A stretch of DNA of 64,000 nt from an uncultured Chloroflexia bacterium (GCA_963753545.1 CAVWCQ010000008.1:300645-364644), one strand, 5' to 3'; positions 75-44,812 are shown, counted from the stretch's first letter. Notes: generated by a model from the letters alone, not told the origin. Made by a program: numbers and translations.

Positions 75-120
75 TTTACCGCAAAGAGCGCGGAGAGCGC
101 AGAGGAAAGGCAAGAGAAAG
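75..120 (+). repeat. REP1 dispersed intergenic repeat copy (core TTTCACCGCGGAGAGCGCGGAG flanked by AAGCAAGAGAA-type arms)
   Basis: TTTTACCGCAAAGAGCGCGGAGAGCGCAGAGGAAAGGCAAGAGAAAG. Confidence 0.7.
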
Positions 121-227
121 TATGAAATAGCCCTTTCCAAGCTCCATAACGACAGGTTGCAGTATAGCCATCTTCGACTATCATCCACTCAGATCAATAA
201 GTTTATTCTCAGATTGGACCGTTATTT

Positions 228-740
228 ATGGATAGACACGCAACGAAAGTATTGCCAAAAATGTCATTGGATGAAGCTCGTTCGGTGATCTGGCCTTTTA
301 ACGAAGTGAAGGGGCAACCAATCGGCTCCCTGCTGGACAAAGGAGTGCTTTCCCTTCGCGATATGGGATTCGCCGTCCAGAGAGCTTATGATAAGCGGGT
401 GCGGGAAGCAGCCCGAACGATTTTGCTCAACGCTCTATCAGAAGCACAAGTTGCTCCTGAAAATGCCCCTGGGCCGCTCAATGTGGTATCTACAGAGCGT
501 CGGAGTTATGCCGAAAGACGCCAGCTTAAGCTAGCTCGATGGGAGGGCTGGTTACAGGAATTTTGGTCGCGCTCGCCTTCTATCTGCGTTTGGCGATGGC
601 TTTATGGGGTAACTCGTCCAGACAATTTGCGCGAACATTGGCGCTATAACCAGCAGCCGGGGGGTATTATTGCTCTAGTGATTGCCTGTGATTATATATC
701 TTGTGATTGGCTATGTGGTGATCCGAATAACTGGCAATAG
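228..740 (+). CDS. hypothetical protein (170 aa). It ends in tandem TAG TAG, 12 nt upstream of the NERD gene start. Local GC is lower than neighbours.
   Basis: ORF track. No recognisable motifs. Probably operonic with the downstream NERD gene. Confidence 0.4.
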   Translation: MDRHATKVLPKMSLDEARSVIWPFNEVKGQPIGSLLDKGVLSLRDMGFAVQRAYDKRVREAARTILLNALSEAQVAPENAPGPLNVVSTERRSYAERRQLKLARWEGWLQEFWSRSPSICVWRWLYGVTRPDNLREHWRYNQQPGGIIALVIACDYISCDWLCGDPNNWQ

Positions 741-752
741 TAGCTGATCTGC

Positions 753-1307
753 ATGGTGAAGCCCTATGATAAGCAGATGCGGCTCCTTCGCAAGGGGCAG
801 TTAGGCGAAGAGCGTGTTCTCAATGTGATGTACAGCGTTCTCGATGGGCGGTGGTGGTTGTTTCGCAACCTGGAACTGCCGGGGCGGCGCATAGGCGATC
901 TTGATTTGGTTCTTGTCGGGCCATGTGGCATGTGGAACTTTGAGGTCAAAGCCTACAGCGGCGAATACCGGAATGTAGGTGAGCGCTGGGAAAAGCGCAG
1001 CAATTCAAAATGGTATTCTGTCCGCAAAAGTCCAACCCGCCAAGCCAAGCGCAATGCGGCGGAGTTGGGACAACTCCTCTCAACCCATCAGATTAAACAA
1101 TGGATCACGCCTGTGATCATTTGGGCCAATCCAAAATCTACGGTTGTGCCTGACAATCCATCGGCCCCTGTTTGGACTCTCGATCAGCTCAGCGGATGCT
1201 TGAAAGACCTGAGCAGTGAACGGCCTATTCCAGAAGGGCAAGTTGAGAAGATAGTCGATGTTCTCAAGAAAATCTGCCAGGACGCTGACGCCGAGATCAG
1301 CGATTGA
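753..1307 (+). CDS. NERD (nuclease-related) domain protein. Putative PD-(D/E)xK-like nuclease.
   Basis: LGEERV...DLDLVLVGPCGMWNFEVK matches the NERD domain signature (D...ExK). Standalone size of 184 aa. Confidence 0.6.
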   Translation: MVKPYDKQMRLLRKGQLGEERVLNVMYSVLDGRWWLFRNLELPGRRIGDLDLVLVGPCGMWNFEVKAYSGEYRNVGERWEKRSNSKWYSVRKSPTRQAKRNAAELGQLLSTHQIKQWITPVIIWANPKSTVVPDNPSAPVWTLDQLSGCLKDLSSERPIPEGQVEKIVDVLKKICQDADAEISD

Positions 1308-1378
1308 AATTCTCACCTCCCAGGCGGAGATTTGCGGCGGCGTGGTAGGGATGGCTACGATCAGCGCAGGAAGTAACG

Positions 1379-2122
1379 ATGAAAGGACAGCCGACCATGC
1401 CGATCACCATTCGGGAACTGCACCGCTGGGACGTCGCACCGGACGAAGCGATCCGGCTGCAAAAAGAACTCGCCGGGCAGGTGATCACCGATCAGCCGCT
1501 CGATCTGGACGGAATCCGGCTGGTGGGCGGCGTCGATGTCAGCGTGAAGGACGATATCAGCCGGGCGGCGGTCGTCGTGCTGCGCTACCCGGAACTCGAT
1601 CTGGTCGAGGCGGCGCGCGCCGAACGCCCCACGACCTTCCCCTATATTCCCGGCCTGCTGTCTTTTCGAGAGGGCGCGGTGATCCTGGACGCCATGCGCC
1701 ACTTGCAGATTGTGCCCGATGTGTTCATGTTTGACGGGCAGGGGATCGCCCACCCGCGCCGGATCGGGATCGCCTCGCATGTCGGGCTGTTCATCGATAT
1801 GCCGACGATTGGCTGCGCGAAGTCACTGCTGACAGGCAAATTTGACATCCTGCCGCCGGAAAAAGGCGCATGGCAGCCGCTGATCCACCGGGGCGAGACG
1901 ATTGGAGTCGCGCTGCGCACGCGGACGAATGTCAGCCCGATCTACGTATCGGTGGGCCACCGGGCGACACTGGACACGGCCCGCGAGATCGTGCTGCGCT
2001 GTGCGACGCGCTACCGCCTGCCGGAGACGACGCGCACGGCGCACATCACGGCGGGCAGTCCGGGGGAGGATGATGAGCAGCACGGCGGCGAGGATGCAGG
2101 TGAGCAGTTGAGTTTGTTCTGA
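1379..2122 (+). CDS. nfi: endonuclease V (deoxyinosine 3' endonuclease)
   Basis: Motifs YIPGLLSFREG and DGQGIAHPRRIGIASHVGL...PTIGCAKS are typical of EndoV. Length ~240 aa. Confidence 0.85.
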   Translation: MKGQPTMPITIRELHRWDVAPDEAIRLQKELAGQVITDQPLDLDGIRLVGGVDVSVKDDISRAAVVVLRYPELDLVEAARAERPTTFPYIPGLLSFREGAVILDAMRHLQIVPDVFMFDGQGIAHPRRIGIASHVGLFIDMPTIGCAKSLLTGKFDILPPEKGAWQPLIHRGETIGVALRTRTNVSPIYVSVGHRATLDTAREIVLRCATRYRLPETTRTAHITAGSPGEDDEQHGGEDAGEQLSLF

Positions 2123-2137
2123 TAAGAGGGCAATAAC

Positions 2138-2407
2138 ATGAAAATTCAGGATATTGCGAGCTTGCAGGGCCTTGAAACTTACCTTCGGGAATTTACCTGT
2201 TGGGGAGATGATGAATTTGTTTACGATGAGGCCGGAGTTGTAAAGCTTTTCCTAGCCTTGCTAGACAATATGAAAACCCACTCTTTAGATGTAGAACTGG
2301 AAGATATTGGCTACCGCTTTTATGATCCTCAAAGAGAATTCATTATGAAGGTTGCCACATTTGCGAATCGAATTACTGACTCAGACATTGAAGCAGAAGA
2401 GGATTGA
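2138..2407 (+). CDS. small acidic hypothetical protein (89 aa). Lower GC than flanking genes.
   Basis: ORF track. AT-richer codon usage. No known motif. Confidence 0.35.
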   Translation: MKIQDIASLQGLETYLREFTCWGDDEFVYDEAGVVKLFLALLDNMKTHSLDVELEDIGYRFYDPQREFIMKVATFANRITDSDIEAEED

Positions 2408-2507
2408 TAACTCTTTGGCTCTACTTGGTCCCTTGCGTTTTTACCCGTCCTGAGCGCCAATAGAGCGCCATAAAAACAGACTTCACCACGAGAACGTAGA
2501 AAAATAT

Positions 2508-2547
2508 CTTGTTTTTCTTTGCGTTCTTTGCGCCCTTTGCGGTGAAC
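2508..2547 (-). repeat. REP1 copy (reverse orientation)
   Basis: TCTTGTTTTTCTTTGCGTTCTTTGCGCCCTTTGCGGTGAA. Confidence 0.7.
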
Positions 2548-2582
2548 CGTCTTTTCTGTCGCTGCCGACTCAGGGAAAAAAC

Positions 2583-3819
2583 TGTGTTCTATCGCCGCAT
2601 TCCGCACTATCCGACCCAACTCTGGCTGCTGTTCTGGGGTACGCTCACGGGCAGCATCGGTCAGAGTATGGTCTGGCCCTTCCTGACGATCACCATCCGC
2701 GAACGGACAGACGTGGCACTGACGACGGTCACGCTGCTGTTCACGCTGCAAAGCATCGCCGGATTCGGCGCGACCACCGTGATCGGCCCGCTGATGGATC
2801 GTTTTGGACGTCGTAAGCCGATGATCGCCGGGCTGATTTGCAGCGGACTCGTCCTGCTGGCGATGAGCCGCGCCACCGAACTCTGGCACTGGGCGATCCT
2901 GCTGCCCGCCTATGGCATGGTGAACACCGCGTTCCGCGTCGGATCGTATGCGATGGTCGCGGACCTCGTGCCGCTCGAACGGCGCGCCGGAGTCTATGCC
3001 CTGCTGCGGATGGGCGATAACTTTGGGATCGTGCTCGGCCCGGCCCTCGGCGGACTGCTGGTCAGCATCGGCTACACGCTCTCCTACGCGGCGGCAGCAT
3101 CGACGCAGTTTATCCTGGCGATCTTCGTCTTTCGCATCGTGCGCGAGACTCTGGCGCGGGACGGCACACACCAGACGGTCAAGGAACAGTCCGGCTACCG
3201 CTTCATGCTGCGCGATCAGAAATTTATGCGCATCTGGGGGCTGTACATCCTGTCGCAGATCGCCAGTTCGATGGTGTTTGTGCTGCTGGGCGTCTATGTC
3301 AAGGAAAATTATTCGATCTCCGAGGATCGCTTCGGTCTGATCATCGGCACAAACGCGGCGATGGTCGTGATCTTCCAGTACGGCTTCACGCGCAAATCGA
3401 CTCAGCACGCGGCACTGCCGGTCATGGCCGGGGGTGGGCTGCTCTATACGCTGGGGATGTTTGTGTTTGCGCTCAGCCGGAGTTTTCCGACGTTTCTGCT
3501 CGGCATGGTGATCTTCACCTGCGGCGAGATGCTGCTGATTCCCACGGCGACGGCATTGGTGGCGAACATGGCCCCGCCGGATATGCGCGCTCGCTATATG
3601 GGCGTCTTCAGCCTGTCGTTCCGCGTGGCGCAGGGGATCGGCCCGGTGATGGGCGGGGTGCTCAGTGATACGATTGCTCCGGCGGCGACGTGGTTCGGCG
3701 GCATGGTCTTCTGCGCGCTGTCGGCGGCGGGATTTTTAGTCCTGTATGGGCGGCGATCCCTATCCTCTGCTGATCATACCTCGATCCCACAGCCGCAAAG
3801 CGAAGGTGTCATAGAGTAG
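2583..3819 (+). CDS. MFS transporter
   Basis: ~12 predicted TM helices with an MFS-like repeat architecture. The track ORF start at 2509 lies inside a REP element, so a GTG start near 2583 is more plausible. Confidence 0.75.
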
Positions 3820-3853
3820 GGCGGGTTTGCTAACCCGCCCCTGATTACTGTCA

Positions 3854-3892
3854 TTTTCTTGTTTTTCTCCGCGCTCTTTGCGGTGAGATTTG
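3854..3892 (-). repeat. REP1 copy (reverse orientation), between convergent MFS and protease genes
   Basis: TTTTCTTGTTTTTCTCCGCGCTCTTTGCGGTGAGATT. Confidence 0.7.
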
Positions 3893-3895
3893 TTT

Positions 3896-4498
3896 TTACG
3901 CGTGCAGAGCGTCCTTCAGGAAACGCTTCGCCACATGAACGGGCACGGCGAATCCCAGATTCGGCCCGCTGATCATCGTGTTGATCCCGACCAGCCGCCC
4001 CGCCGTATCGACCAGCGGCCCGCCGGAATGTCCGGGGCGCATGCGCAGGCTTACCGCGATCCAATCGTGAGCGGTGGGGGCCAACCCAACCAGATTGGGA
4101 CCTGAGCCCACAACCACGCCGCCCGTCACCGCGCCTAACACACCCCAGGGATGTCCCACCGCCAGCACCCATTCGCCGGGGCGCAGCCGTTCGGATCGGC
4201 CCAGTTCAATTGTCGGCAGGGAATCGGCTTCGACCGACAGCGCCGCCAGATCGATGTTCCGATCCTGGGCCAGCACCGTCGCGGGCAGATGTCGCCCATC
4301 CGGCAGAGTCACGTGCGGGGCATGTCGGGCTGAACGCTCCGCGATGACATGGGCATTGGTCAGGATCAGCCCGTTGGCATGCCAGATCGTGCCCGCGCCG
4401 AAGCTGCCGTCACCGTTGCCGATCTGGACGAGCGCACAGCGCGCCCGTTCCACCACCCACGCCAGATCGCCATCCAGTTGCGTGCTGAGATCGGCCAT
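3896..4498 (-). CDS. trypsin-like serine protease (S1C family, protease domain only)
   Basis: TNAHV and GHSGGPLV catalytic motifs. Its start overlaps the stop of the upstream protease gene (TAATG). Confidence 0.7.
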   Translation of the reverse strand: MADLSTQLDGDLAWVVERARCALVQIGNGDGSFGAGTIWHANGLILTNAHVIAERSARHAPHVTLPDGRHLPATVLAQDRNIDLAALSVEADSLPTIELGRSERLRPGEWVLAVGHPWGVLGAVTGGVVVGSGPNLVGLAPTAHDWIAVSLRMRPGHSGGPLVDTAGRLVGINTMISGPNLGFAVPVHVAKRFLKDALHA

Positions 4499-5415
4499 TA
4501 TTCGCGCTCTCCCACCGTCACTTTCAGGTCTTTGATTTCGCCGCCGCGCACGACGCGCACGGGCAGCGCCTTGCCGATCCGATCCCCGGACAGTCCGCCC
4601 AGCAGATCGTCCATGTGGCGCACGGCCTGACCATCCAGCCCGATGATCACGTCGCCCATCATCAAGCCGCCGCGCTCCGCCGGACTATCCGATTCCACCG
4701 AGACGAGCATCAGGCCCGTTTCCTGTTCAACCTTCGCCGCCAGCGCATCGGGCAGGCGGACGGGCTGCGTCCCGATGCCCAGGTAACCGCGCCGGACGCG
4801 TCCATGAGCCGCCAGCGTTTCGATCACCCGCCGCAGGGTAGGCGTGGGCAGGGCGACACTCGCTTCGCGCAGCAGAGCCGATGTGTTCAGTCCCAGCACC
4901 GCGCCGGATGCGCCAACGAGCGGCCCGCCGGAAAAGCCGGGATACATCACGATATCGGTGTTCACGTAGCGATCCACTGCGCCGCCCGCCGGGGTGCGCC
5001 ATTCGGGGGCCAGGGCGCTGATCACGCCGAGAGTCGCCTGGACGGTTTCGCCGGGGCGTCCCAGCGCCAGCACCAACTGCCCGATCTTCAGCGAATCGGC
5101 TTCCGCCCAGGTGGGCACAGGCAGCCCGCTCAGATCGGCGCGCAGCAGGGCGATATCCGTGCTGGGATCGCGCCCGACCAGCGCCGCCGGGACGGTCTGC
5201 CCGGTGGACAGTCCCACGTGGATATTCTCGTCTCGCGTGACCACATGGTGCGCCGTGACGATCAGCCCGTCCGCGGACCAGACGATCCCGGTAGCGGGCA
5301 GACGCCGCCGCCCTTCAATGCGCACGACACTGGGGCCGATCCGCTCCACTGCCGCCGCCAGATCATTCGATAAGGATTGCAATACATCAGCCATTTTGGG
5401 ATTCTCCTCCACCAA
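4498..5415 (-). CDS. HtrA/DegP-family serine protease with C-terminal PDZ domain
   Basis: TAHHV, GFSGGPLV and a PDZ-like C-terminus (GDVIIGLDGQAV). Confidence 0.8.
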   Translation of the reverse strand: MVEENPKMADVLQSLSNDLAAAVERIGPSVVRIEGRRRLPATGIVWSADGLIVTAHHVVTRDENIHVGLSTGQTVPAALVGRDPSTDIALLRADLSGLPVPTWAEADSLKIGQLVLALGRPGETVQATLGVISALAPEWRTPAGGAVDRYVNTDIVMYPGFSGGPLVGASGAVLGLNTSALLREASVALPTPTLRRVIETLAAHGRVRRGYLGIGTQPVRLPDALAAKVEQETGLMLVSVESDSPAERGGLMMGDVIIGLDGQAVRHMDDLLGGLSGDRIGKALPVRVVRGGEIKDLKVTVGERE

Positions 5416-5838: not shown

Positions 5839-5856
5839 AGAACGCTGTCTCCCGTC

Positions 5857-6667: not shown

Positions 6668-6728
6668 CTCTCTCTGCTTTTCTCCGCGCTCTTTGCGCTC
6701 TCCGCGGTGAAATTTTCTTGTTCTTTTG
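6668..6728 (-). repeat. REP1 copy (reverse orientation, extended)
   Basis: CTCTCTGCTTTTCTCCGCGCTCTTTGCGCTCTCCGCGGTGAAATTTTCTTGTTCTTTTGC. Confidence 0.7.
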
Positions 6729-6876: not shown

Positions 6877-7662
6877 CTACTTGGTATGTCCATTACCGGT
6901 GCGTTCGCCCAGATAGTCCCCAACCGACTTCGCCAGCGTCACAAAGTCGGACGGCATCATGATGATGGTTGTCGTGTTGTGTTCCGCGCCGACTTCGGAG
7001 ATCATCTGCATGCGGCGCAGTTCCAATGCGGCGGGATTCTGTACGATCAGCTTGGAGGCTTCCGACAGTTTCACGGACGACTCAAGTTCAGCATCAGCCT
7101 TGATGATGCGGGCGCGGCGTTCACGCATCGCTTCGGCTTCGCGGGCCATCGCGCGCTGCATCGATTCGGGAATTTCCACGTCCTTCATCTCAACGGCCTG
7201 CACTTCAATGCCCCAGGCTTCCGTTGAGTTGTCCACGATCTTCTTCAGCATGTCGTTGATCTTATCCCGCTCGCGCAGCGCTTCGTCCAGATCGTGCTGG
7301 CCGATGATGTTGCGCAGCGTCGTGAGCGCGACCTGATAGACGGCGGAGCGGTAATCCGCGACGGCGATCACAGCCTTCTGCGGATTAACCACACGGAACC
7401 ACAGCACGGCGTTGACGCGGATCGTCACGCTGTCCTTGGTGATCGTTTCCTGCGGCTCGACACTGACGGTCGAGGTACGGATATCGATCTTGCGCATCCG
7501 CTCAAAGCCGAGAGGAACGATCCAGAACATGCCTGGGCCACTGATCCGGCGGAAGCGGCCCAGGAAGAAGACGACGGCCCGTTCATATTCCATGACCATG
7601 CGCAGGCCAGACAGCAGGAGAACGACGACAACAACAGCAATGACTAAAATGATTTCAGGCAC
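6877..7662 (-). CDS. SPFH/band-7 (stomatin-like) membrane protein
   Basis: N-terminal TM helix followed by an SPFH core (FRRISGPGMFWIVP...VDIRTSTVSVEPQE...). Confidence 0.8.
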   Translation of the reverse strand: MPEIILVIAVVVVVLLLSGLRMVMEYERAVVFFLGRFRRISGPGMFWIVPLGFERMRKIDIRTSTVSVEPQETITKDSVTIRVNAVLWFRVVNPQKAVIAVADYRSAVYQVALTTLRNIIGQHDLDEALRERDKINDMLKKIVDNSTEAWGIEVQAVEMKDVEIPESMQRAMAREAEAMRERRARIIKADAELESSVKLSEASKLIVQNPAALELRRMQMISEVGAEHNTTTIIMMPSDFVTLAKSVGDYLGERTGNGHTK

Positions 7663-7769: not shown

Positions 7770-7806
7770 TCTCTCTTGTTTTTCTTTGCGTTCTTTGCGG
7801 TGAATA
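7770..7806 (-). repeat. REP1 copy (reverse orientation)
   Basis: CTCTTGTTTTTCTTTGCGTTCTTTGCGGTGAATAATT. Confidence 0.7.
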
Positions 7807-7811
7807 ATTTT

Positions 7812-8468
7812 TTATTCATCCCCAAACACGATCTGATCCGCCTGATCGGAGCCATGATCCGCCAGATAGCCGCGCACGAAGTCAGGATTAAGCGCTCCGT
7901 CGAGGGCGCTGCCCTGTCCGGCAAGCTGCGCCTGGATCGCGTTGTGCAGCAGTGTTCGCTCGGCTTGCAGCATGCCGCGCCGTTCCCGCCCGATCTGCCA
8001 GTTCTGCCAGACAGCGGCCAGCGTGGAGGCGGTGCTCGCCGCCGTTTGCATCAATTCCAGAATCTGCTGGGCGCGGGCGATCCGTTCCGATGTTTTGCTG
8101 CGGGCGGGCAGACTGGGTCTGAGGGGTACAGACGGCGGGATGATCATCGGCACGCGCACCGGATCGGCGGGCAAACTGCGTGCCGCTGCATACTGCCGCC
8201 AGCGTGCGTCCTGTTCATCGAGCAGCCCTAACTGGCGGAACGGATCAGGCGCATCGAGCAGCAATTCCAGGCGGGGCAGCACCATACCACGCACCATCGC
8301 CACCGCTTCACGCGGATCATCCGCATAGGCGGCATCGAGCGGCATGCTGCCCAATGGAGCGAAGCTGTAACGCAGCGTCTCGATGCGAATCCGCACCAGT
8401 ATGAGATCGGACAGACGCTCGACGTGGTGCAGGGTATAGAGGCGCATATAACGGCGGAACGACGTCAA
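7812..8468 (-). CDS. hypothetical protein
   Basis: ORF track only. Confidence 0.3.
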   Translation of the reverse strand: MTSFRRYMRLYTLHHVERLSDLILVRIRIETLRYSFAPLGSMPLDAAYADDPREAVAMVRGMVLPRLELLLDAPDPFRQLGLLDEQDARWRQYAAARSLPADPVRVPMIIPPSVPLRPSLPARSKTSERIARAQQILELMQTAASTASTLAAVWQNWQIGRERRGMLQAERTLLHNAIQAQLAGQGSALDGALNPDFVRGYLADHGSDQADQIVFGDE

Positions 8469-10383: not shown

Positions 10384-10552
10384 CAGCCGCGCCCCAACTC
10401 GCCAACCGCCGCTATACTCAGACTGGTCCACAGAATCGGTATCCTACCCCTCTCCAGCGCAGACTGGAGAGGGGAGTCTCAGCCGTTTTTGCTGAGACGG
10501 GGTGAGGTGTCGCCCGCGACCCACAACGTTTATTTCTTTCTCAGAGTGATTG

Positions 10553-10590
10553 CTTTTCTCTTGATTTCTTTGCGCTCTTTGCGTTCTTTG
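10553..10590 (-). repeat. REP1 copy (reverse orientation), abutting MITE-like element copy 1
   Basis: TTTTCTCTTGATTTCTTTGCGCTCTTTGCGTTCTTTG. Confidence 0.65.
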
Positions 10591-10762
10591 TAGATCATCG
10601 AAAGTCGTGCAATGAACAGTGTTTTCCCCTTCCCCCGCGGCTGCGAAGCAAGCAAGCTGTGGGGGAAGGGTGGCTGAACATGCTTTTCCGTTCAGCCGGG
10701 ATGAGGGCCTGCCCGCGATCCGCAACGCTCATTCATCTCACAAAATTGCATTACTTTCATTG
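10591..10762 (+). repeat. MITE-like structured repeat, copy 1 (~175 bp, imperfect CAATGAA termini)
   Basis: Near-identical to the reverse complement of 36573..36748. Internal hairpins CCCCTTCCCCC...GGGGGAAGGG and GGCTGAAC...GTTCAGCC. The track ORF N-terminus MGEGWLNMLFRSAGMRACPRS... is a translation artefact of this element. Confidence 0.7.
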
Positions 10763-10816
10763 TTTTACTTTTGCGGTGATATTTTGTGTTCTTGTTTTCC
10801 GAACCAGGAAGGCATT

Positions 10817-17760: not shown

Positions 17761-17940
17761 AAAAGGCACGCCTTCTATCCTCACCGCTAAAGCGGGAGGT
17801 TTTACGGCGCTTTCTCGATAAGATGCGGGCCTTTTTCATGGGACTTCTCCTTGCATCAGTGGGTTTCTAGATTTTTTTATTGCCAGGGGAGGCCCCCTGC
17901 ACAATATCTTTGGCGGAGGAGTTGTAGAGATGCTTCTGTA

Positions 17941-17990
17941 CAAGAGAAAAGCGAAAAACAGATTTCACCGCGGAGAAAAGCAAAAGCGAG
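17941..17990 (+). repeat. REP1 copy
   Basis: CAAGAGAAAAGCGAAAAACAGATTTCACCGCGGAGAAAAGCAAAAGCGAG. Confidence 0.7.
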
Positions 17991-29597: not shown

Positions 29598-29678
29598 CAG
29601 GATAGCACAGATTTTCCCTAAAATACTCCCTTAAGGTTGAACCTTAAGTACGAATTTGGAGATGGACGTCTTTGAAAT
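29598..29678 (+). repeat. left copy of a ~85-bp inverted repeat (partner at 30630..30712)
   Basis: ACAGGATAGCACA...AATACTCCCTTAAGGTTGAACCTTAAGTAC...TTTGGAGATGGACGTCTTTGAAAT matches the reverse complement of 30630..30712 with few mismatches. Confidence 0.7.
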
Positions 29679-30008: not shown

Positions 30009-30227
30009 TTAGTTGTTCGCGCGCATCACGTTGGTGGCCTGGGGACCTTTTTGGCCCTGAGTGACGATGAAAGTAACCCGCTCGCCCTCAGCCAGTTCAC
30101 GGTAGCCATCACCCTGGATTTCGCTGTGATGCACGAATACATCCGGGCCGCCTTCGCGTTCGATGAATCCAAAGCCCTTCTGGGCGTTAAACCACTTCAC
30201 AGTACCGCTCGTACGTTCTTCAGTCAT
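30009..30227 (-). CDS. csp: cold-shock protein (CspA family)
   Basis: [40 protein letters not shown]1/RNP2 motifs. 72 aa. Confidence 0.9.
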
Positions 30228-30629
30228 TTGGAAAATTCCTTTCCCACTAAAATTGGCTTGATGTCGTGGGAATGGAGTCACTTGGGGATAAAAAATACAG
30301 CGCGTTGATTGAGTTGCGCTGGAATTTGATACCACTTGTGCAAACAACCTTTTCCACCACAAACACTATTATACATCATATCTTCTAAACCGTCGAATTT
30401 ATGTGTTAGTGAAGCGTTTCTCACACGCCTCATATCTCAAGACTTTCATTCGTGTTTTAGTGTTGCTGACGGAAAATCAGGCACGACCACGCCGCAGATA
30501 GCCCCTATCCCCGACCCTTTCCCCGTGCATGCTGCGCGGCTTAGCTGCGCACGCATGCGTGGAGAAAGGGAGACGCGTTCCTCTCTCCACGCAGTGGGGA
30601 GAGGTTAGGAGAGGGGCCGCTTTTGATCA

Positions 30630-30712
30630 TTTTAAAGACGTCCATCTCCAAAATAGTACTTAAGGTTCAACTTTAAAGGAGTATTGTTCGTCGAACATTT
30701 GTGCTATACTGG
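30630..30712 (-). promoter_or_regulatory. right inverted-repeat copy. Probable csp promoter and 5' leader start.
   Basis: Lies ~400 nt upstream of csp on the minus strand. Cold-shock genes carry long 5' UTRs. Sequence identical in inverted orientation to 29598..29678. Confidence 0.45.
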
Positions 30713-34965: not shown

Positions 34966-35007
34966 GGCGCGACGGCTTAGCTTCGCACGCTTGCAGCGCC
35001 CGTACAA
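34966..35007 (+). repeat. REP2 hairpin-CTACAA-type element
   Basis: GCGCGACGGCTTAGCTTCGCACGCTTGCAGCGCCCGTACAAC. Confidence 0.55.
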
Positions 35008-35035
35008 CTTTTGTTGCCTACAAGAACGAGGACGC

Positions 35036-36450
35036 ATGACGGATACACAATCGACTTCCGATCCGCTGGATGGGCAGCATGTGGTCGTGCTGGGATTCGC
35101 ACGGCAGGGCAAGGCACTCGCCCGCTGGCTGCCTACCATTGGCGCGCAGGTGACGGTCTCGGATACACGAAGCACGGCGGCGCTGGCCTCAGAACTGGGC
35201 GAATTTGCCGGGCTTCCTGTCCAGTTCGCGCTGGGCGGGCACCCGCTGGAACTTTTGGACGGCTGCGATCTACTCTGTGTGAGCGGGGGCGTTCCGCTGA
35301 CGCTGCCGATCATCCAGGAGGCGTTCCAACGCGGGATTCCGGTGACCAATGACGCGCAGTTATTCCTGGAACGCTGTCCCGCGCCTGTACTGGGCATCAC
35401 CGGGAGCGCGGGCAAAACGACAACCACAACGCTAGTCGGGGCGATGTGCCGGGCATCCGGGCGGCGGACGTTTGTCGGTGGCAATATTGGCGATGTGCTG
35501 CTCGACATGCTGCCGCAGATCGGCGGGCAGGATATCGTCGTCATGGAACTGAGCAGCTTCCAGTTGGAACTGATGACGGTCAGCCCGGATGTATGCGCCG
35601 TGTTGAATGTGACGCCGAATCACCTGGATCGACATGGCACGATGGATGCCTACAGCGCGGCGAAGGCCCAGATTTATCTGCACCAGACGCCGAGCGACGT
35701 GGCGATCTTTGGCTATGATGATCCCGTTGCTGAGCGGATGAGTCATGAAGCGCCGGGCGAGTCGCCTATTTTTCGCTGCATTCCGCTGTGCCGTCGGGCG
35801 CATATCTCAAGGGGCAGGAACTCGTCGTGGTGGGCGATAGTTCGCCAGGGGCGGAGTGGCGGACGATCTGCCCCCGGGATGAAATCCGGCTGCGAGGCGA
35901 GCACAACGTGGCGAATGTGTTAGCCGCTTGCGCTGTCGCCGGGGCGGGGAGCATCTCACCGGAAGCGATGCGCCGCGCGATAGGTTCCTTTACGGGAGTC
36001 GAGCACCGCCAGGAACTGGTGGCAACGATCAACGGCGTGACATGGGTGAATGACAGCATCGCCACCGCGCCGGAGCGAGTCGTTGCTGCGCTACGCAGTT
36101 ACAGCGAACCGCAGGTGCTGCTGGTCGGCGGGCGCGACAAAAACCTGCCCTGGGAGGAGATGGCCGATCTGGCTGTGACCCGCTGCCGGGCGGTGATCGG
36201 GTTTGGCGAATATGGGGCCAGGGCTATCGAGCATATCGAACAGGCGAGGGAGCGGGCGGCGGGATCGATGGTGGAGCAGGTGCATGTGGTGGATACGCTG
36301 GACGAGGCCGTGCAGCAGGCTTCTGCAATCGCCCAGCCCGGCGACGTGGTGCTGCTCAGCCCAGGCGGAACGTCGTATGATGCGTACCAGGATTTCGCGG
36401 CGCGGGGGCAGCATTTCCGGGATCTGGTGCACGGGCTGGCAGCCGGGTAA
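35036..36450 (+). CDS. murD: UDP-N-acetylmuramoylalanine--D-glutamate ligase with an apparent frameshift near 35780
   Basis: N-terminal GKxVVVLGxxRQG, Mur ligase GITGSAGKTTTT. The C-terminal domain continues in the second frame (35788..36450). Confidence 0.8.
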
Positions 36451-36568
36451 AGAAAAGCAAGAGAAATAAAAGAAAAAGCAGATTTCACCGCGGAGAGCGC
36501 GGAGGGCGCGGAGAAAAGCAAGAGAAGTAAAAGAAAAAGCAGATTTCAGCGCGGAGAGCGCGGAAGTA
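36450..36568 (+). repeat. two tandem REP1 copies after murD
   Basis: AAAGCAAGAGAAATAAAAGAAAAAGCAGATTTCACCGCGGAGAGCGCGGAGGGCGCGGAG followed by AAAAGCAAGAGAAGTAAAAGAAAAAGCAGATTTCAGCGCGGAGAGCGCGGAAG. Confidence 0.75.
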
Positions 36569-36572
36569 GGAC

Positions 36573-36748
36573 AATGAAAGTAATGCAATTTTGTGAGATG
36601 AATGAGCGTTGCGGATCGCGGGCAGGCCCTCATCCCGGCTGAACGGAAAAGCATGTTCAGCCACCCTTCCCCCACAGCTTGGCTTGCTTCGCAAGCACGC
36701 GGGGGGAAGGGGAAAACACTGTTCATTGCACGACTTTCGATGATCTAC
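36573..36748 (-). repeat. MITE-like structured repeat, copy 2 (inverted relative to copy 1)
   Basis: Reverse complement of 10591..10762. Produces the same artefactual peptide (track ORF 36091..36726). Confidence 0.7.
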
Positions 36749-37048
36749 AGAGAAAGGCAAATATCACTGCGGAGAACCGTAGCTTTGCTTAAGAGGAGAG
36801 CAAAAATGCCGCTTTTTGGACATCCCAACGTGGACAAGTTAAAAGCCTATCATGACGGCTTATTATGAGCGCGACCTCGATGGTGTCACCACCTTAAAAT
36901 TGTTTTCGTAGCGAAGGCGGGGTCTGGCGAAGAACGGAACACAAGCGATACAATCTGCGGAGGCGTATGGCTGGCTGTACGCCAGGGGTTGGCACTCTTA
37001 ACTGCGGAACTGACGCGCGCCGCGACCAAGACTGGGAAAGGATCGGGT

Positions 37049-38681: not shown

Positions 38682-39720
38682 GCTGTACCCCACCCTTACC
38701 TTGTCATTTGTTGGCGCGCGCGGCGATATGGCGCGGGATCTAGTCCAGCGCGCTGATGTATCGTTCGATTCCTATCATGAAGTGCTGGCGGGACCGCTGC
38801 ATGGTGTGCCGCGTCTGCGCCAACTGATCAGTTCGTTCAAGATTCTGGCCGGGGTGATCCAGTCGCTGATCCTGGTGATCCGCTATCGCCCGGAAGTGTT
38901 ATTCCTGACGGGCGGCTGGGTCGGTTTTCCGATGGCGGTGGCCTGCTGGCTGACGCGGCGGCCCATCGTGATTTATGTGCCCGACATTGAGCCGGGGTTG
39001 ACGCTGCGCCTGTTGGGGCGCTATTTCGCACGGACTATCGCGGCGACGGTGGCGCAAACGAAAGACTTCTTCCCCGGCAAAACCGTCGTGGAAACTGGCT
39101 ACCCGCTGCGCGCCGAAATCCTGAGCGCGAACCGGGAGCAGGCGATCAAGGCGCTGAACCTGAATCCAGCGCGGCGCACGCTGCTCGTTTTTGGCGGCAG
39201 CAAAGGATCGCGCAGCATCAATACAACCATGAGCCAGATCGCGCCGCTGCTTCTGGCGGAGGATCTGCAAATCCTGCACATTTCCGGCAAGCTGGATTGG
39301 CCGCAGGTGCAGGCGCAGTACGAGACGTTGACAGAGGCGCAGAAACAGCGGTACCAGGTCTTTTCATTCCTGCCGGATATCGGGCAGGCGTTCGCTGCCG
39401 CCGATCTGGTGATCAGCCGGGCAGGGGCGGCGACGCTGGCGGAATATCCGCAGTTTGGACTGCCGTCGATCCTGGTGCCGTATCCCTGGACATGGCGCTA
39501 CCAGAAGGTGAATGCCGATTGGCTGGTCGAGCGCGGCGCGGCAGTGCGGTTGGATGATGACCGGTTGGGTGACGAGCTTCTGCCGACAATTCAGGCGCTG
39601 CTGAACGATCCGGGACGGTTGGAGCGGATGCGGGCAGCCGCCGAGTCGCTGCGGCGATCTGATGGCGCGGAAAATATCGCGCGGGTGCTGGCCGATGTGG
39701 CGGGACATCCGGGCGGGTAG
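38605..39720 (+). CDS. murG: undecaprenyldiphospho-muramoylpentapeptide beta-N-acetylglucosaminyltransferase
   Basis: RIVISAGGTGGGVYPALAV N-terminus. GT28 C-terminal domain (GGSKGSRSIN...RAGAATLAE). GTG start chosen, overlapping the ftsW 3' end. Confidence 0.85.
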   Translation: MRIVISAGGTGGGVYPALAVAGALRKLYPTLTLSFVGARGDMARDLVQRADVSFDSYHEVLAGPLHGVPRLRQLISSFKILAGVIQSLILVIRYRPEVLFLTGGWVGFPMAVACWLTRRPIVIYVPDIEPGLTLRLLGRYFARTIAATVAQTKDFFPGKTVVETGYPLRAEILSANREQAIKALNLNPARRTLLVFGGSKGSRSINTTMSQIAPLLLAEDLQILHISGKLDWPQVQAQYETLTEAQKQRYQVFSFLPDIGQAFAAADLVISRAGAATLAEYPQFGLPSILVPYPWTWRYQKVNADWLVERGAAVRLDDDRLGDELLPTIQALLNDPGRLERMRAAAESLRRSDGAENIARVLADVAGHPGG

Positions 39721-39785
39721 AGAAAGAAAAAATATTTCACCGCAAAGAGCGCGGCTTCGCTAGGAAAAGCAAGAGAAGAACAAGA
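39721..39785 (+). repeat. REP1 copy after murG
   Basis: AAATATTTCACCGCAAAGAGCGCGGCTTCGCTAGGAAAAGCAAGAGAAGAACAAG. Confidence 0.7.
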
Positions 39786-39786
39786 T

Positions 39787-39847
39787 AGGGCGGGTTAACA
39801 AATCCGCCCCTACAAAAATGGGCGCGGCAAGCAGCGCCCCTACAAGG
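39787..39847 (+). repeat. two tandem REP2 units (hairpin + CTACAA)
   Basis: GGGCGGGTTAACAAATCCGCCCCTACAAAAATGGGCGCGGCAAGCAGCGCCCCTACAAGG. Confidence 0.6.
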
Positions 39848-39996: not shown

Positions 39997-40527
39997 ATGG
40001 TGCAGCTCTCCACGGTTTTATGGACTTCCATCCTCTTATTTGCCTTTATCGGCTATATGCGTGGCTGGACGAAAGAAATCTTAGCGACGGCAGGCATTGT
40101 CCTGGCGCTGTTCACGATCAAGCAGTTTGAAACGCTCCTGATCGATCCCCTGACTAACGGCGAGCAGACCTCGAAATTTTACCTGGAAGCGACTATTCTG
40201 CTGACGCTGGCCTTCTTTGGCTATCAGACACCGCCAGAGCGATTCGTCCGCAGCAAAAAATCCGTGATACGCGAGGGCGTGCAGGAGGGCATCCTGGGCG
40301 CACTGGTCGGAGCGTTGAACGGCTACCTGCTGGTCGGTTCGCTGTGGTGGTACATGGATAACCTGGAATATCCACTCAGCCCGCATATTATTCCGGTTGC
40401 GCCTGGCTCAGCCAGCGCCAATATGGTCGATGTGCTGCCGCTCAGTTGGATGTTGGGCGGTGACGGCGGCATTCTGTCGCTGATCATCATCGTCCTGTTC
40501 ATTTTTATTATTGTCTCCTTCGTGTAG
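39997..40527 (+). CDS. CvpA-family membrane protein
   Basis: ~4 TM helices. CvpA-like topology and size. Confidence 0.55.
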   Translation: MVQLSTVLWTSILLFAFIGYMRGWTKEILATAGIVLALFTIKQFETLLIDPLTNGEQTSKFYLEATILLTLAFFGYQTPPERFVRSKKSVIREGVQEGILGALVGALNGYLLVGSLWWYMDNLEYPLSPHIIPVAPGSASANMVDVLPLSWMLGGDGGILSLIIIVLFIFIIVSFV

Positions 40528-40563
40528 CCCTGGCGATGTAGAGAGATTGAGGACCAGAATCCC

Positions 40564-41714
40564 GTGCGATTTTCACGGATTGTTTTGGAAAACTGGCGCA
40601 ACTTTGGACAGGTTGAGGTTGCGCTGCAAAACCGGGCCTTTTTACGTAGGGCCGAACGCATCCGGAAAGTCCAATTTTCTGGATGTCTTCCGTTTTCTGC
40701 GCGATCTGGTTGTGCCCGGCGGTGGTTTTGAGCAGGCAGTAACGAGTAGAGGTGGCTTTATACAACTGCTCAATATGGGGCAGCAGAGCCATATCCCTTA
40801 TCTTGATATTATGATTTAGGTTGAGTTATCTGAGAATGATGCTGTTTGGCGTTACCGTATTGCTTTTTCCGCAGATGTGGGCGCAACCAAACCTCTATGT
40901 AAAACAGGAACAAGTTTGGGTCGGCGACACCCTGGTTTTGGATCGGCCCAATGCACAGGATCGGAATGATCCTGATCTGCTCCGGCAAACCTATTTGGAA
41001 CAAACCGTTGTTAACCGCCCTTTCCGCGAGATTGTCGATTTTTTCGCCTCGATTAAGTATTTCCATTTTGTGCCACAGTTGGTGCGCGAGGCAGGCGGGC
41101 GCAAGCGCGAAGATGATCCCTATGGCAGTGATTTTATTGACCAACTCACGCGTATGAATCCTGAAGCGCGCCAGGAACGATTAGACCAGATTCAACAGGC
41201 GCTTAAAGGAGCGATCCCTTCTTTACTGGAATTGAAGTTGGAACGCATTCAGGATGTTTTTCACTTGAGGGGACGATTTCGTGTTCAGTCCGCAATGGCG
41301 AAAAGCGCGTGGCATAATGAAACTGATTTTTCGGATGGGACGCTGCGCTTGATCGGGCTGTTGTGGGCGCTGTTGGATGCACAGGGGCCACTGCTTTTGG
41401 AAGAGCCTGAATTGTCGCTTCATGAGGCGATTGTTCGCCATATTCCTATGTTGATCTGGTCCGCAATACGCGGCACGGATCGGCAGGTATTGTTAAGCAC
41501 ACACAGCAGCGATTTGTTGATGGACGAGGGAATAGCACCTGACGAAATCCTGGTATTTATCCCGGCTTCTACTTCCGAAAACAGCACGATCAAAGTGGGC
41601 ATTGATATTGGCGAGGTGCGCGATCTGCTGGGGGCAGGGCTGCCACCGGGTGAAGTTTTCATCGCTTACACTCAGCCGAAAGATATCAATTCACTCTCGC
41701 TTCGAGGAGAGTGA
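40564..41714 (+). pseudogene. OLD/AbiEii-like AAA ATPase (AAA_21-type ABC ATPase) carrying two frameshifts and an in-frame TAG
   Basis: Reconstructed N-terminus MRFSRIVLENWRNFGQVEVALQNRAFL-VGPNASGKSNFLD (Walker A). C-terminal part has Walker B/D-loop LLLEEPELSLHEAIV and LSTHSSDLL. Lesions: a frameshift at the T5 run near 40640, TAG at 40817-40819, and a frameshift near 40900. Lower GC than the flanking mur genes. Confidence 0.65.
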
Positions 41715-41717
41715 TGG

Positions 41718-42332
41718 TTGGACCAAGGGGAGAATTCGTTTCTCGTATATTTGGCTGTCGAGGGCGATGTTGATGAGGCAGTGGCCCGGCGCATCCTGGA
41801 ATATGTTGATCTGCCTCACTACTTGTTGGCATCACCACCGAACGGGAAGGCGAAACTTCTGGAAAATATGCCCAAGTACAATGAGGCGGCAAAATGGAAT
41901 TGCTGGTTTGTGCTGGTAGACCTGGATCAGAAGCCGGAATGCGCGCCTGATTTGATTCAAACGGTGCTGCCAAAGCCCAGCAAGGGGATGCGGTTTCGGG
42001 TCGCGGTTCATGCGATGGAAGCATGGCTGTTAGCCGATACCGATCATTTATCTGATTTCCTGCATGTGCCACAGACGAAGTTTCCAACTAACCCTGATGC
42101 GGAACTGAATCCGAAAGTTTCGCTGGTGAATCTGGCTCGGCACAGCACTCGCGAGGAGATTCGCAAGGATATGGTTCCTCGCGAGGGTAGCGGCGGCTCA
42201 GTGGGGCCGGGTTATACGGATCGTTTGAGAGAATTTGTAATCACTCGTTGGCGACCAGAAGCGGCGGTTGAACGTTCGGACAGCTTACGGCGCTGCATTG
42301 CAGCATTACAAACATTGAAAAACTGGAATTAG
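41718..42332 (+). CDS. small Toprim-like protein (resembles DUF4276-type partners of AAA_21 ATPases)
   Basis: FLVYLAVEGDVDEAV (conserved Glu in the EG..E motif) and FVLVDLDQ (DxD) resemble Toprim catalytic motifs. Start is 4 nt after the ATPase stop and the gene ends 4 nt before murC. Confidence 0.5.
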   Translation: MDQGENSFLVYLAVEGDVDEAVARRILEYVDLPHYLLASPPNGKAKLLENMPKYNEAAKWNCWFVLVDLDQKPECAPDLIQTVLPKPSKGMRFRVAVHAMEAWLLADTDHLSDFLHVPQTKFPTNPDAELNPKVSLVNLARHSTREEIRKDMVPREGSGGSVGPGYTDRLREFVITRWRPEAAVERSDSLRRCIAALQTLKNWN

Positions 42333-42335
42333 AAA

Positions 42336-43739
42336 ATGCTCCACCCTGGACAGCACATTCACATTGTGGGCGTGGGCGGCTTTGGCATGTCAGCTATCGC
42401 CCGCGTTCTGCTTCAGCAGGGCTACACCGTCAGCGGTTCGGATCTGCGTGAAAATGAATTCACCCGCGATCTGGCCGCAGCGGGCGCGGCTATCTACATC
42501 GGTCATGCGGCGGAAAATATCGCCGGGGCGGATGTGGTCGTGATTACCTCTGCCGCGACGGAGAGCAACCCCGAAGTGAGCGCGGCGCAACGGCAGGGAC
42601 TCCCTGTCTTGCGGCGGCGCGAGATGCTCAGCGAGGTGATGGCTGGGCAGATGGGGATCGCTATTGCCGGGACACATGGCAAAACCACCACAACCGCTTT
42701 GATGGTCCACACGTTGATCGAAGCGGGGCGCGACCCATCCTATATCGTCGGCGGCGTGATGCAAAATACGGGCACCAATGCCGGGGTGGGGCGGGGCGGC
42801 CTCTTCGTGATCGAGGCGGATGAATATGACCGGATGTTTCTCGGCCTGCGCCCACAGATTGCCGTGGTCACGAACATCGAACATGATCATCCCGACTGCT
42901 TCCCAACCACGCGCGACGTCGTACTGGTATTCGAGCAGTTTGCCGATCTGCTGCCTGCGGACGGAGTGCTGATCGCCTGCAACGATGATCCGGCGGCGGC
43001 AGGATTGGCCTGGAAGCGTCGCAGCGCCGGACTCCCTGTGCAGACCTACGGCACCCAACACACTGCTCCTCCGCCAACGTGGAGCGCGGAAAATCTGGTC
43101 TCTGACGACCAGGGCGGAATCAGCTTCACGGCGCGGCACGGCGATCAGGTGATGGGGCGGGTGCGGCTGAATTTATCCGGCAAACACAACGTACTCAACG
43201 CGCTGAGCGTGTTGGCGGTGGCGGACCTCTTAAAAATCCCGTTTGAGCCAGTCGCAGCGGCATTTAACTCATTTTTGGGAACGGGGCGGCGCAGCGAAGA
43301 AATGGGGCAGGCAGGCGGCGTGACGGTGATCAGCGATTACGCGCACCATCCCACGGCGATTCGGGTGACATTGGCGGCACAGCGGGATCGTCCCGGCATC
43401 CGGCATGTGTGGGCTGTCTGGCAGCCGCATACCTATGGGCGGATGCGCATCCTGGCGGATGAGTTTGCCCATGCTTTCGGAGCCGCCGATCATGTGCTGG
43501 TGACGGGTGTTTATTCGGTGCGGGAGCAGATCACACCGGGATTGGATGCACCGGGCATGGCTGATCTGATCCGGGTGATGGAAGCGGGAAAAGACGTGCG
43601 CTGTACCGGATCATTCGACGCGACGGTGAGCGCGCTGATCGAGGGTGTGCAGCCTGGCGATCTGGTGCTGATCCTCTCGGCAGGTGATGCACCGCAAATC
43701 GGCCAACGCCTGCTCGATTACCTAAGAATTTGTTCGTAA
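42336..43739 (+). CDS. murC: UDP-N-acetylmuramate--L-alanine ligase
   Basis: HIVGVGGFGMSAIA, GTHGKTTTT and Mur ligase middle and C-terminal domains. Confidence 0.9.
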   Translation: MLHPGQHIHIVGVGGFGMSAIARVLLQQGYTVSGSDLRENEFTRDLAAAGAAIYIGHAAENIAGADVVVITSAATESNPEVSAAQRQGLPVLRRREMLSEVMAGQMGIAIAGTHGKTTTTALMVHTLIEAGRDPSYIVGGVMQNTGTNAGVGRGGLFVIEADEYDRMFLGLRPQIAVVTNIEHDHPDCFPTTRDVVLVFEQFADLLPADGVLIACNDDPAAAGLAWKRRSAGLPVQTYGTQHTAPPPTWSAENLVSDDQGGISFTARHGDQVMGRVRLNLSGKHNVLNALSVLAVADLLKIPFEPVAAAFNSFLGTGRRSEEMGQAGGVTVISDYAHHPTAIRVTLAAQRDRPGIRHVWAVWQPHTYGRMRILADEFAHAFGAADHVLVTGVYSVREQITPGLDAPGMADLIRVMEAGKDVRCTGSFDATVSALIEGVQPGDLVLILSAGDAPQIGQRLLDYLRICS

Positions 43740-43745
43740 ATTATT

Positions 43746-43786
43746 GGGCGCAGGGCTTGCTTCGCAAGCTGGCAGCGCCCTTACAT
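43746..43786 (+). repeat. REP2 element
   Basis: GGGCGCAGGGCTTGCTTCGCAAGCTGGCAGCGCCCTTACA. Confidence 0.55.
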
Positions 43787-44723
43787 GGTACTGGTGCGGG
43801 AGCAGCCGATGAATGAACTTTATGCCCCGCTGGCGGATCGCTTTGGGGCGGCGCTGCGGCGGAACGATCCCCTGGCGCGTTATACGGTGGCGCGGTTGGG
43901 TGGTCCTGCCGATGCGCTGCTGATCGCCGGATCGATGCCTGACCTGACGCATGCCATCAAACTGGCCCATGAGTATCACATCCCCTGGATCATTCTGGGC
44001 GGCGGCGCGAATGTGCTGATCGCGGATAAAGGCTATCGCGGGCTGGTGATTGTCAACCATACGCGAGCGGTGCGTCTGAACGATGACGGGACGCTGGTCG
44101 CGGAGAGCGGCGCAAATCTGACCACCGTCGCCCGGCGCTGCATGAGTCAGGGCTGGGCTGGGCTGGAATGGGCCGTTAACGTGCCAGGGACGGTTGGCGG
44201 GGCGGTAATCAACAACGCGGGCGCGCACGGCGGCGAAATGTCGCAGTCGCTGCTGTCGGCGGAACTGCTCGAACTGGGCGAAAAGGCGGGGATCGCGCTG
44301 TGGCCCGTTGAAAAAATGGCATACGCTTACCGTTATTCGGCGCTGAAGGGACAGCATGGGCGCTATGTCGTGCTCTCGGCGCAGCTTCGGCTCGAACCGG
44401 GGCACGATCCGGCAGCCCTCAACGAAAAGGCCGACGGATACATCGCGCACCGCAAGCGCACGCAGCCGCCGGGAGCCAGCCTGGGCAGCATCTTCAAGAA
44501 TCCGCCGGGGGATTACGCGGGCCGACTGCTCGAGGCTGCCGGGCTGAAGGGGCAGTCGATTGGCGGCGTGCTGATCTCGCCCGTCCATGCCAATTTCTTC
44601 ATCAACACGGGGCACGGCACGGCGCATGACTATTTCGCGCTGATCCAGTTGGCGCGGGAGACGGTCGAGGAGAAATTCGGCGTCCGGCTGGAGTTGGAGA
44701 TCGAGACGCTGGGCGAGTGGTGA
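43785..44723 (+). CDS. murB: UDP-N-acetylenolpyruvoylglucosamine reductase
   Basis: FAD-binding PCMH domain ([17 protein letters not shown]). C-terminal MurB domain ([11 protein letters not shown]). Confidence 0.9.
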
Positions 44724-44812
44724 AAAGAAAAAGCAAAGAAATTTCACCGCGGAGAGCGCAGAGAACGCAGAGAAAAGCAAAAGAGAGTAAAGAGAAAAAA
44801 GAATTTCATCAA
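44723..44812 (+). repeat. REP1 copy (extended) after murB
   Basis: GAAAAGAAAAAGCAAAGAAATTTCACCGCGGAGAGCGCAGAGAACGCAGAGAAAAGCAAAAGAGAGTAAAGAGAAAAAAG. Confidence 0.7.

Follow-up and report, generated by a model that had tools for sequence, protein, structure and literature searches.

Intergenic REP1 repeats of an uncultured Chloroflexia bacterium resemble the arms of small gene cassettes

The 64,000-nt stretch of DNA from an uncultured Chloroflexia bacterium analyzed here (GCA_963753545.1, CAVWCQ010000008.1:300645-364644; hereafter, the window) contains a dispersed family of short intergenic repeats, REP1, and raises the question of what kind of element these repeats represent. A first-pass annotation of the window had proposed that REP1 is akin to the repetitive extragenic palindromic (REP) sequences and bacterial interspersed mosaic elements (BIMEs), possibly acting as a terminator or as a stabilizer of transcript 3' ends. 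Our results establish that the family itself is real and that this proposal for its nature is largely wrong. The reading that we favor, with modest confidence, is that REP1 copies represent arms, gene-less and mostly solo, that belong to a widespread class of small selfish cassettes.

Anatomy and placement of the REP1 copies

We located 13 REP1 copies at 11 loci, spanning positions 65 to 44805 of the window, in agreement with the earlier count of at least ten dispersed copies. The 22-mer core put forward in the first-pass annotation, searched with up to three mismatches, occurs at six sites and at none in 100 shuffles, and a pattern describing a pair of units (CGCRRAGARCGCRRAG) yields 14 matches in the window against 0.11 expected. 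Tandem Repeats Finder independently detected 9-nt periods at REP1 sites. A nhmmer profile built from 10 copies regained all ten of them, together with both halves of a copy split at 10.5-10.8 kb, and added two degenerate arms (2471-2496 and 36749-36777), with no convincing match to the profile in the 45-64 kb portion of the window. As initially described, copies are present in both orientations and every one of them lies between Pfam-identified genes.

Read on its purine-rich strand, REP1 is composed of an A-rich leader (e.g. AAAGAAAAAGCAGA), a TTTCAC head, one to three tandem 9-mers and a purine-rich tail (GAGAAAAGCAAGAGAA...). The 9-mer follows the pattern CGC-RR-AG-NN, where RR is GG, AA or AG and NN is always purine in this genome. 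The palindrome previously noted in the core (CCGCG-GAGAG-CGCGG) requires RR = GG and NN = AG; it is thus found in GG/AG variants and is missing from AAAGAA-type copies, such as the one at 7774-7816 (CGCAAAGAACGCAAAG). Because the palindrome is confined to the GG/AG variants, conservation in REP1 resides in the pattern of 9-nt period and not in a hairpin. Only one locus in the window (2472-2547) is two-armed, the other 10 of 11 loci being single-armed. The tandem duplication reported at 36450-36568 corresponds to a pair of copies at 36451-36566 with a period of 61 nt, and the spurious ORFs (open reading frames) of MFFFAFFA type attributed to the repeat are exemplified by ORF 2509..3819, which starts with TTG TTT TTC TTT GCG TTC TTT GCG on the reverse strand of a REP1 copy.

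The claim that copies usually lie just after gene 3' ends applies to roughly six or seven of the 11 loci, where REP1 follows a stop codon in sense orientation. The stop-to-head distance is 8 nt for both the HtrA-like gene (3896-4498, minus strand) and the gene at 7812-8468 (minus strand), ~150 nt for the SPFH gene, 33 nt for murD, where the leader touches the stop, 14 nt for murG and 18 nt for murB. The claim does not extend to the copies at 65-120 and 17940-17990, which are located in divergent 5' regions, or to the split copy at 10.5-10.8 kb, which is antisense between two plus-strand genes. A copy is indeed present next to the major facilitator superfamily (MFS) transporter gene, as annotated, but it is antisense to that gene and sense to the convergent protease gene. 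Furthermore, the copies at 7774-7816 and 6672-6727 end ~20 nt before an ATG.

The same asymmetry is apparent when arms from other genomes, described below, are pooled with those of the window (n = 178 arms). Using crude ORF calls (stop-to-stop, with minimum lengths of 80-100 amino acids in the position statistics and of 100 in this count), the stop of a same-strand ORF precedes the head by at most 25 nt in 24% of arms, compared to 6% in mirror-image orientation and 6% at random positions. Within 50 nt, the corresponding figures are 36%, 11% and 10%. We compared the dcw (division and cell wall) region with the syntenic regions of uncultured relatives (L116-L123; MurG identity 71-79%), which retain the gene order murD-(small genes)-ftsW-murG-cvpA-murC-murB. 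No REP1 was detected after murD, murG or murB in these relatives, and on this comparison the window copies appear to be lineage-specific insertions. One of the relatives (L116) has a similarly designed arm (GCACCACAGAGGGCGCAGAGAGACACAGAG), located at another site, after a WD40 gene.

Arms in other genomes and in gene cassettes

Scanning a single genome for each GTDB species (596 Gb) with the core TCACCGCRRAGARCGCRRAG identified at least 114 loci in many bacterial and archaeal phyla. Among the matches listed, bacterial carriers belong to the Chloroflexota (many), Acidobacteriota, Planctomycetota, Verrucomicrobiota, Desulfobacterota, Nitrospirota, Gemmatimonadota, Myxococcota, Bacteroidota, Armatimonadota, Abditibacteriota, Poribacteria, Binatia, Aminicenantes and a lineage of the candidate phyla radiation (CPR), and archaeal carriers comprise Methanoperedens (six metagenome-assembled genomes, MAGs), ANME-1, Methanomicrobiales, Methanocomedens and Thermoplasmatota. 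At locus L043, where the arm lies 15 nt past the stop of a replication-factor-C gene, the archaeal context is genuine. In IMG/VR viral contigs, the core was found in 33 stretches, versus a single one for a reversed-pattern control (GARRCGCRAGARRCGCCACT).

A naive expectation for a 20-nt pattern in 596 Gb is ~35 matches, and a few of the matches (L035, L070, L046 and L108) plainly fall in frame within coding sequences of high-GC actinobacteria. Chance is nonetheless rejected as a general explanation because a third unit, not demanded by the pattern, is present in 45-54% of matches, against ~0.02% (1/4096) by chance, and in 55 of the 121 genome matches listed, because a T precedes the head in 74 of these 121, because an inverted partner arm is often found 5-110 nt downstream (33 hairpin-type against 84 single-armed among the matches listed) and because of the disparity with the reversed control in viral contigs. 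Descent from a coding sequence (frame F-T-A-E-x-A-E, in which the first R is synonymous) was likewise discarded, given that copies occur in both orientations, in inverted pairs and outside ORFs.

All-against-all clustering of ORFs located near arms returned a single informative family, which Pfam and NCBIfam models identify as PDDEXK_3, or GxxExxY protein (PF13366, TIGR04256; PD-(D/E)XK). PF13366, a family listed without a known function, has been reported from viruses as well as from Archaea and Bacteria, and multiple transfers have taken place among the three (PMC3424549). At locus L088, the GxxExxY gene is bounded exactly by an arm on one side and by an inverted arm on the other, forming a cassette between two host genes, and at locus L091 an arm and an inverted arm bracket a HicB/HicA pair. 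Two further loci (L099 and L109) harbor a gene for an S23p four-helix-bundle protein (PF05635, TIGR02436), with inverted arrays of different short units, also rich in purines, on its two sides. The first-pass annotation had regarded membership in a larger mobile element with coding capacity as evidence against its proposal; arms of this design do bracket GxxExxY and HicAB genes in other genomes, and the copies in the window are gene-less, with no GxxExxY, S23p or HicAB gene detected by tblastn in its 64 kb.

We sampled the flanks of GxxExxY genes in 80 metagenome loci, 68 of which have both flanks. In 57 of the 68, arrays of at least two C-R-C-N-R-A-G heptamers spaced 8-10 nt lie within ~200-250 nt of the gene, against ~0.2 loci expected by chance, and 31 of the 68 present the simple form of arm, gene and inverted arm. 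Arms mostly have three units (25 of 40), 25 of 40 cassettes begin at most 40 nt past the stop of a co-oriented upstream ORF, and the arm ends 1-20 nt before the ATG of the cassette ORF. Cassette L159, which carries REP1-type arms with the same head and units as REP1, illustrates this arrangement: ...TGA TTCACCGCAGAGTACGCGGAGAACGCAGAG C ATG ... TAA TTAT CTCTGCGGACTCCGCGAACTCTGCGGTGA. Together, these results indicate that the REP1 arm is one subtype (CGC-RR-AG, 9-nt period, TCAC head) of a family of cassette arms.

Comparison of the two arms of individual cassettes reveals that the variable positions of the heptamers agree 83% of the time, against 51±3% when partners are shuffled, while the spacers agree 40% of the time, against 39±8%. 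Because the heptamers match between arms and the spacers do so no better than chance, the heptamers are the constrained boxes of the arm, and in a full stem helices of 7 bp would alternate with small internal loops. In gene-less hairpins, the NN positions behave like cassette spacers. A perfect hairpin and RNA covariation were both discarded, since hairpin arms agree at R and not at NN positions, and since G·U versus A·C counts showed no strand asymmetry (15 versus 11). An autonomous transposon between arms was also rejected: between paired arms separated by 150-2600 nt lie either small cassettes or ordinary genes (DUF362, PD40), but never a transposase.

Short tandem arrays with other periods were also observed at equivalent positions. 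In the dcw region of relative L117, a (CGCTGAA)x5 array follows murB (14230-14260), and in a Thermoflexales MAG (L004, 6270-6320) four to five copies of CGCGGATGAA flank a GxxExxY gene. These arrays suggest that units repeated every 7 or 10 nt also belong to the arm family. Beside the S23p cassette of the Binatia MAG L099, the region at ~1100-5200 contains an array resembling clustered regularly interspaced short palindromic repeats (CRISPR; repeated translations LNPSLLKSRSPT) and a RAMP/Cas6-like ORF.

Candidate origins of the repeat family

If REP1 copies are solo cassette arms, the complete element would comprise a T/A-rich head, an arm of about three units, a small ORF and an inverted arm, with each unit spanning 8-10 nt and combining the C-R-C-N-R-A-G heptamer with a free spacer of 1-3 nt. 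The ORF would encode a GxxExxY nuclease of the PD-(D/E)XK type, replaced in some cases by HicAB or by a four-helix-bundle protein of the S23p family, and the cassette would be placed directly past the stop codon of a co-oriented host gene. Window copies would descend from such cassettes or be mobilized in trans by them, in the way that miniature inverted-repeat transposable elements (MITEs) relate to transposons. The heptamers may be recognized boxes, either read by the cassette nuclease or forming the 7-bp helix segments of a long stem, which would resemble the stem that RNase III processes in 23S rRNA intervening sequences. The sense-after-stop placement would reflect the use of the host transcript by the cassette, with the purine-rich arm just before its own start codon, and sense orientation may persist since a purine-rich, Shine-Dalgarno-like strand is presumably harmless or useful in host mRNA. 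In this host, REP1 copies are most likely neutral passengers, and they serve as landing sites for another small element.

Several points weigh against this interpretation. In this particular genome, the putative link to cassettes is one of resemblance only, and cassette decay leaves unexplained the preferential survival of left arms at the ten single-armed loci. The genome-specific leader and tail and the 61-nt tandem duplication suggest that REP1 may have its own spreading route; homing of the nuclease into existing arms, were it to occur, would also leave the leader, the tail and the excess of solo left arms unexplained. No target-site duplication, pair of empty and filled sites or mobilizing enzyme has been demonstrated. 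In addition, loci were chosen because they contain the motif or because they ranked among the best 80 of at least 550 protein matches, and the position statistics rely on crude ORF calls, although the asymmetry that they reveal is large.

A bolder version of the cassette proposal can be advanced only tentatively. The heptamers, three per arm, might constitute recognition or homing sites of the 125-aa GxxExxY nucleases, in which case arms and nuclease would make up an undescribed class of minimal mobile cassettes of Bacteria, Archaea and viruses that use the first nucleotides past host stops for transcription and translational coupling and leave behind thousands of solo arms, with 23S rRNA intervening sequences as a special case. 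In the literature searched, the coverage of which was incomplete, we found no description of the arm pattern, of the post-stop placement or of the association with GxxExxY, and the broader arm pattern is apparently undescribed.

Among the alternatives, a role in host RNA fares best, but we consider it improbable. According to this explanation, REP1 resides in 3' untranslated regions or between cistrons as a terminator or 3'-end stabilizer, or as an unstructured purine-rich spacer in which GGAG/GAGA provide ribosome standby or Shine-Dalgarno sites. The sense orientation of arms right past stops, in the window and across genomes, fits such a role, as do the short distances to a downstream ATG seen in cassettes and in two window copies. 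Folding of the sense-strand RNA does not favor it: seven of eight copies have z-scores of -0.4 to -1.6, no better than shuffles, with one short copy reaching z = -4.0, and minimum free energies range from -5 to -12 kcal/mol. Weak sense folds and the lack of a U-tract after REP1 on the purine-rich strand thus contradict the terminator or stabilizer function initially suggested for the repeat. A terminator scan of the 36-45.5 kb region returned 12 sites, not enriched over the 9.2 expected, and no REP1 copy in sense orientation is among them; on the antisense strand, a small GC hairpin and, after it, a T-rich run at 39755-39739 count in favor of an RNA function. AAAG variants lack the GGAG motif, three window loci are not sense-after-stop, and the same operon junctions exist in relatives that have no REP1 there. 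Two of the copies are followed, at 3820-3841 and ~39786-39810, by a separate GC-rich hairpin (GGGCGGGTT..AACCCGCCC), and it is these hairpins, rather than REP1, that look like real terminator candidates. No Rfam match was obtained at the gathering score in the whole window, and no identity as CRISPR, tRNA or Rfam RNA was found for REP1.

We deem it unlikely that REP1 is a classical REP, or a REP doublet forming a hairpin (REPIN). In such a family, a REP-associated tyrosine transposase (RAYT), whose gene lies at another site of the genome and typically has REPs on its flanks, copies and maintains a short palindrome. The window does contain one inverted dimer (2472-2547), and other elements insert into REP1, much as the insertion sequences (ISs) IS1397 and ISKpn1 do into REPs. 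Like REPs, REP1 is short, high-copy and intergenic, and lies mostly between unidirectional or convergent genes, downstream of coding regions (PMC3733652). Nevertheless, neither the GTAG nor the CGTC tag of REPs (PMC3733652) is found in any copy, the ends consisting of a TTTCACC head and a purine-rich tail, and there is no conserved stem-loop of the kind formed by the imperfect 20-40 bp palindrome of a REP, since AAAGAA-type copies lose the 5-bp palindrome and folding is weak. A tblastn search with Escherichia coli RayT yielded no match with E < 1 in the window or in ~150 motif-bearing loci (~0.9 Mb), a weak negative in that distant RAYTs could be missed. Moreover, classical REPs are species-specific, whereas the REP1 core is common to both prokaryotic domains and to viruses.

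It is highly improbable, finally, that REP1 is a DNA-binding array of three boxes with 9-bp spacing for a nucleoid-associated or topology-related host chromosomal protein, with no connection to cassettes. Conserved heptamers, free spacers and a number of boxes fixed at about three count in favor of such an array, but no single DNA-binding host protein is common to all bacterial, archaeal and viral carriers, copies are missing from close relatives, and neither the strong orientation relative to genes nor the bracketing of small selfish genes would be anticipated.

Should the attribution of REP1 to cassette arms be correct, a single explanation would account for common intergenic "junk" repeats and spurious ORFs in environmental genomes, including the FTAESAE- and LCVLCV-type peptides of Chloroflexota, Planctomycetota, Acidobacteriota, Methanoperedens and others, and a simple pattern would let annotation pipelines mask such regions. 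GxxExxY/PF13366 and S23p/PF05635, two large families of unknown function, would gain a testable genomic context, and Bacteria, Archaea and viruses would have in common a short DNA "arm code." In this genome, the dcw (mur/fts) cluster would have been invaded at least four times with its gene order kept.

Neighboring elements and comparison with known systems

Table 1. REP1 copies and inserted elements in the window
Feature	Position	Strand	Remarks
REP1, three units and tail	65..120	+	Arm 76-104 TTACCGCAAAGAGCGCGGAGAGCGCAGAG; divergent 5' region between minus gene starting at 41 and plus gene at 228
Degenerate REP1 arm CTTCACCACGAGAACGTAG	2472..2496	+	Inverted partner of 2507..2547; the pair is the sole hairpin-type copy in the window
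REP1 arm, three units GTTCACCGCAAAGGGCGCAAAGAACGCAAAG	2507..2547	-	Gives the spurious MFFFAFFA ORF start
REP1, two units	3857..3897	-	Sense, 8 nt past stop of HtrA-like gene (3896-4498, minus); followed by GC hairpin 3820-3841
REP1, three units	6672..6727	-	Sense, downstream of SPFH gene (6877-7662, minus)
REP1, two AAAGAA-type units	7774..7816	-	8 nt past stop of 7812-8468 gene (minus); just upstream of SPFH gene
REP1 distal half (two units and tail)	10545..10588	-	Copy split by 179-nt insertion
REP1 leader, head and first unit ATATCACCGCAAAAG	10768..10800	-	Other half of the split copy; antisense to flanking PD40 and ABC genes
Structured element, ~180 nt, not REP1	10589..10767	-	Inside arm, right after CGCRRAAG unit; 97% identical to 36567-36749
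REP1, single unit	17940..17990	+	Between broken IS605-type tnpB (minus) and Yip1 gene (plus)
REP1, three GG-type units	36451..36512	+	Leader abuts murD stop; first of 61-nt tandem pair
REP1, second of tandem pair	36513..36566	+	Arm cut after unit 2 by inserted element
Structured element, second copy, not REP1	36567..36749	+	RNA fold -78.5 kcal/mol, z = -5.5, termini paired
REP1 tail remnant and degenerate head ATATCACTGCGGAGAA	36750..36783	+	
REP1, second unit decayed	39716..39785	+	Sense, 14 nt past murG stop; GC hairpin follows
REP1, three units	44722..44805	+	Sense, 18 nt past murB stop; adjoins IS (DDE_5) remnant

The ~180-nt element inserted in two REP1 copies (10589-10767 and 36567-36749; Table 1) has a central palindrome (CCCTTCCCCC..GGGGGGAAGGGG) and no Rfam match, and looks like a MITE-like element or a structured RNA targeting REP1 units. 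A diverged hairpin of the same type is found at ~56330-56400, downstream of nrdJ. Two Chloroflexota MAGs (L013 and L022) have the same small hairpin (CCCCGATAC...GTATCGGGG) inserted past the CGCAAAG unit of an arm, which is a second case of arms as insertion targets.

Other features of the window were also noted. A lower-GC (0.52) insertion at 40511-42332 separates cvpA and murC, which are adjacent in all syntenic relatives, and encodes the candidate defence pair HEC-01A and HEC-01B (PADLOC E-values of 6e-85 and 2e-60); HEC-01A is an AAA_21 ATPase, here split into two ORFs. The murD gene (34991-36450) is read in two overlapping frames, 34991-35923 for the N-terminal and middle domains and 35788-36450 for the C-terminal domain, reflecting either a frameshift or an assembly error. 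An IS605-type tnpB (16494-17658, minus strand) is broken into two ORFs, one corresponding to OrfB_IS605 with a Cas12f1-like TNB domain and the other to the HTH_OrfB part, and the one-unit REP1 copy is ~300 nt upstream of it. A DDE_5 transposase gene and a DDE fragment (44852-46269, minus strand) adjoin the murB-associated REP1 copy on its downstream side and separate murB from a WD40 gene and ftsQ. Lastly, 57-nt inverted repeats (29622-29678 and 30629-30685; 91% complementary) bracket ~950 nt that hold a cold-shock-domain gene (30009-30362, minus strand).

REP1 and the cassettes with arms of its design have features in common with several known systems. Like integron cassettes with their attC sites, arm cassettes are promoterless and small, often encode toxin-antitoxin pairs, present imperfect inverted repeats and depend on upstream host transcription. 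They differ in that REP1 lacks the RYYYAAC/GTTRRRY boxes and is dispersed singly past host genes, instead of being arrayed beside an integrase, and an attC identity was rejected for want of R'/R'' boxes. As in MITEs, gene-less copies keep only the ends of a coding element and outnumber it, but no transposase or target-site duplication was seen for REP1 and most window copies keep a single end. REP, BIME and REPIN sequences resemble REP1 in their length (30-90 nt), abundance, intergenic location and 3' bias, in their occurrence as single elements or inverted dimers and in being targets of insertion; REP1 departs from them in having no terminal tag or conserved palindrome, in being made of three tandem 9-mers and in the failure to find a RAYT.

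The closest described system is the 23S rRNA intervening sequence with an S23p (PF05635) ORF, known from Coxiella burnetii and Leptospira. The Coxiella element, which is excised by RNase III and regarded as selfish, has a 28-bp stem formed by terminal inverted repeats, an AG-rich region and three tandem heptamers before the S23p ORF (PMC4990558). Intervening sequences are located inside rRNA helices and are excised, whereas REP1 follows the stops of protein-coding genes, contains no ORF and is mostly single-armed, and the units also differ (CGCRRAG in REP1, GACAGAT in the intervening sequence). As in the cassettes, however, a short ORF is enclosed by terminal inverted repeats (a stem of ~28 bp), with an AG-rich stretch and about three tandem heptamers upstream, the number of which varies between strains (PMC4990558).

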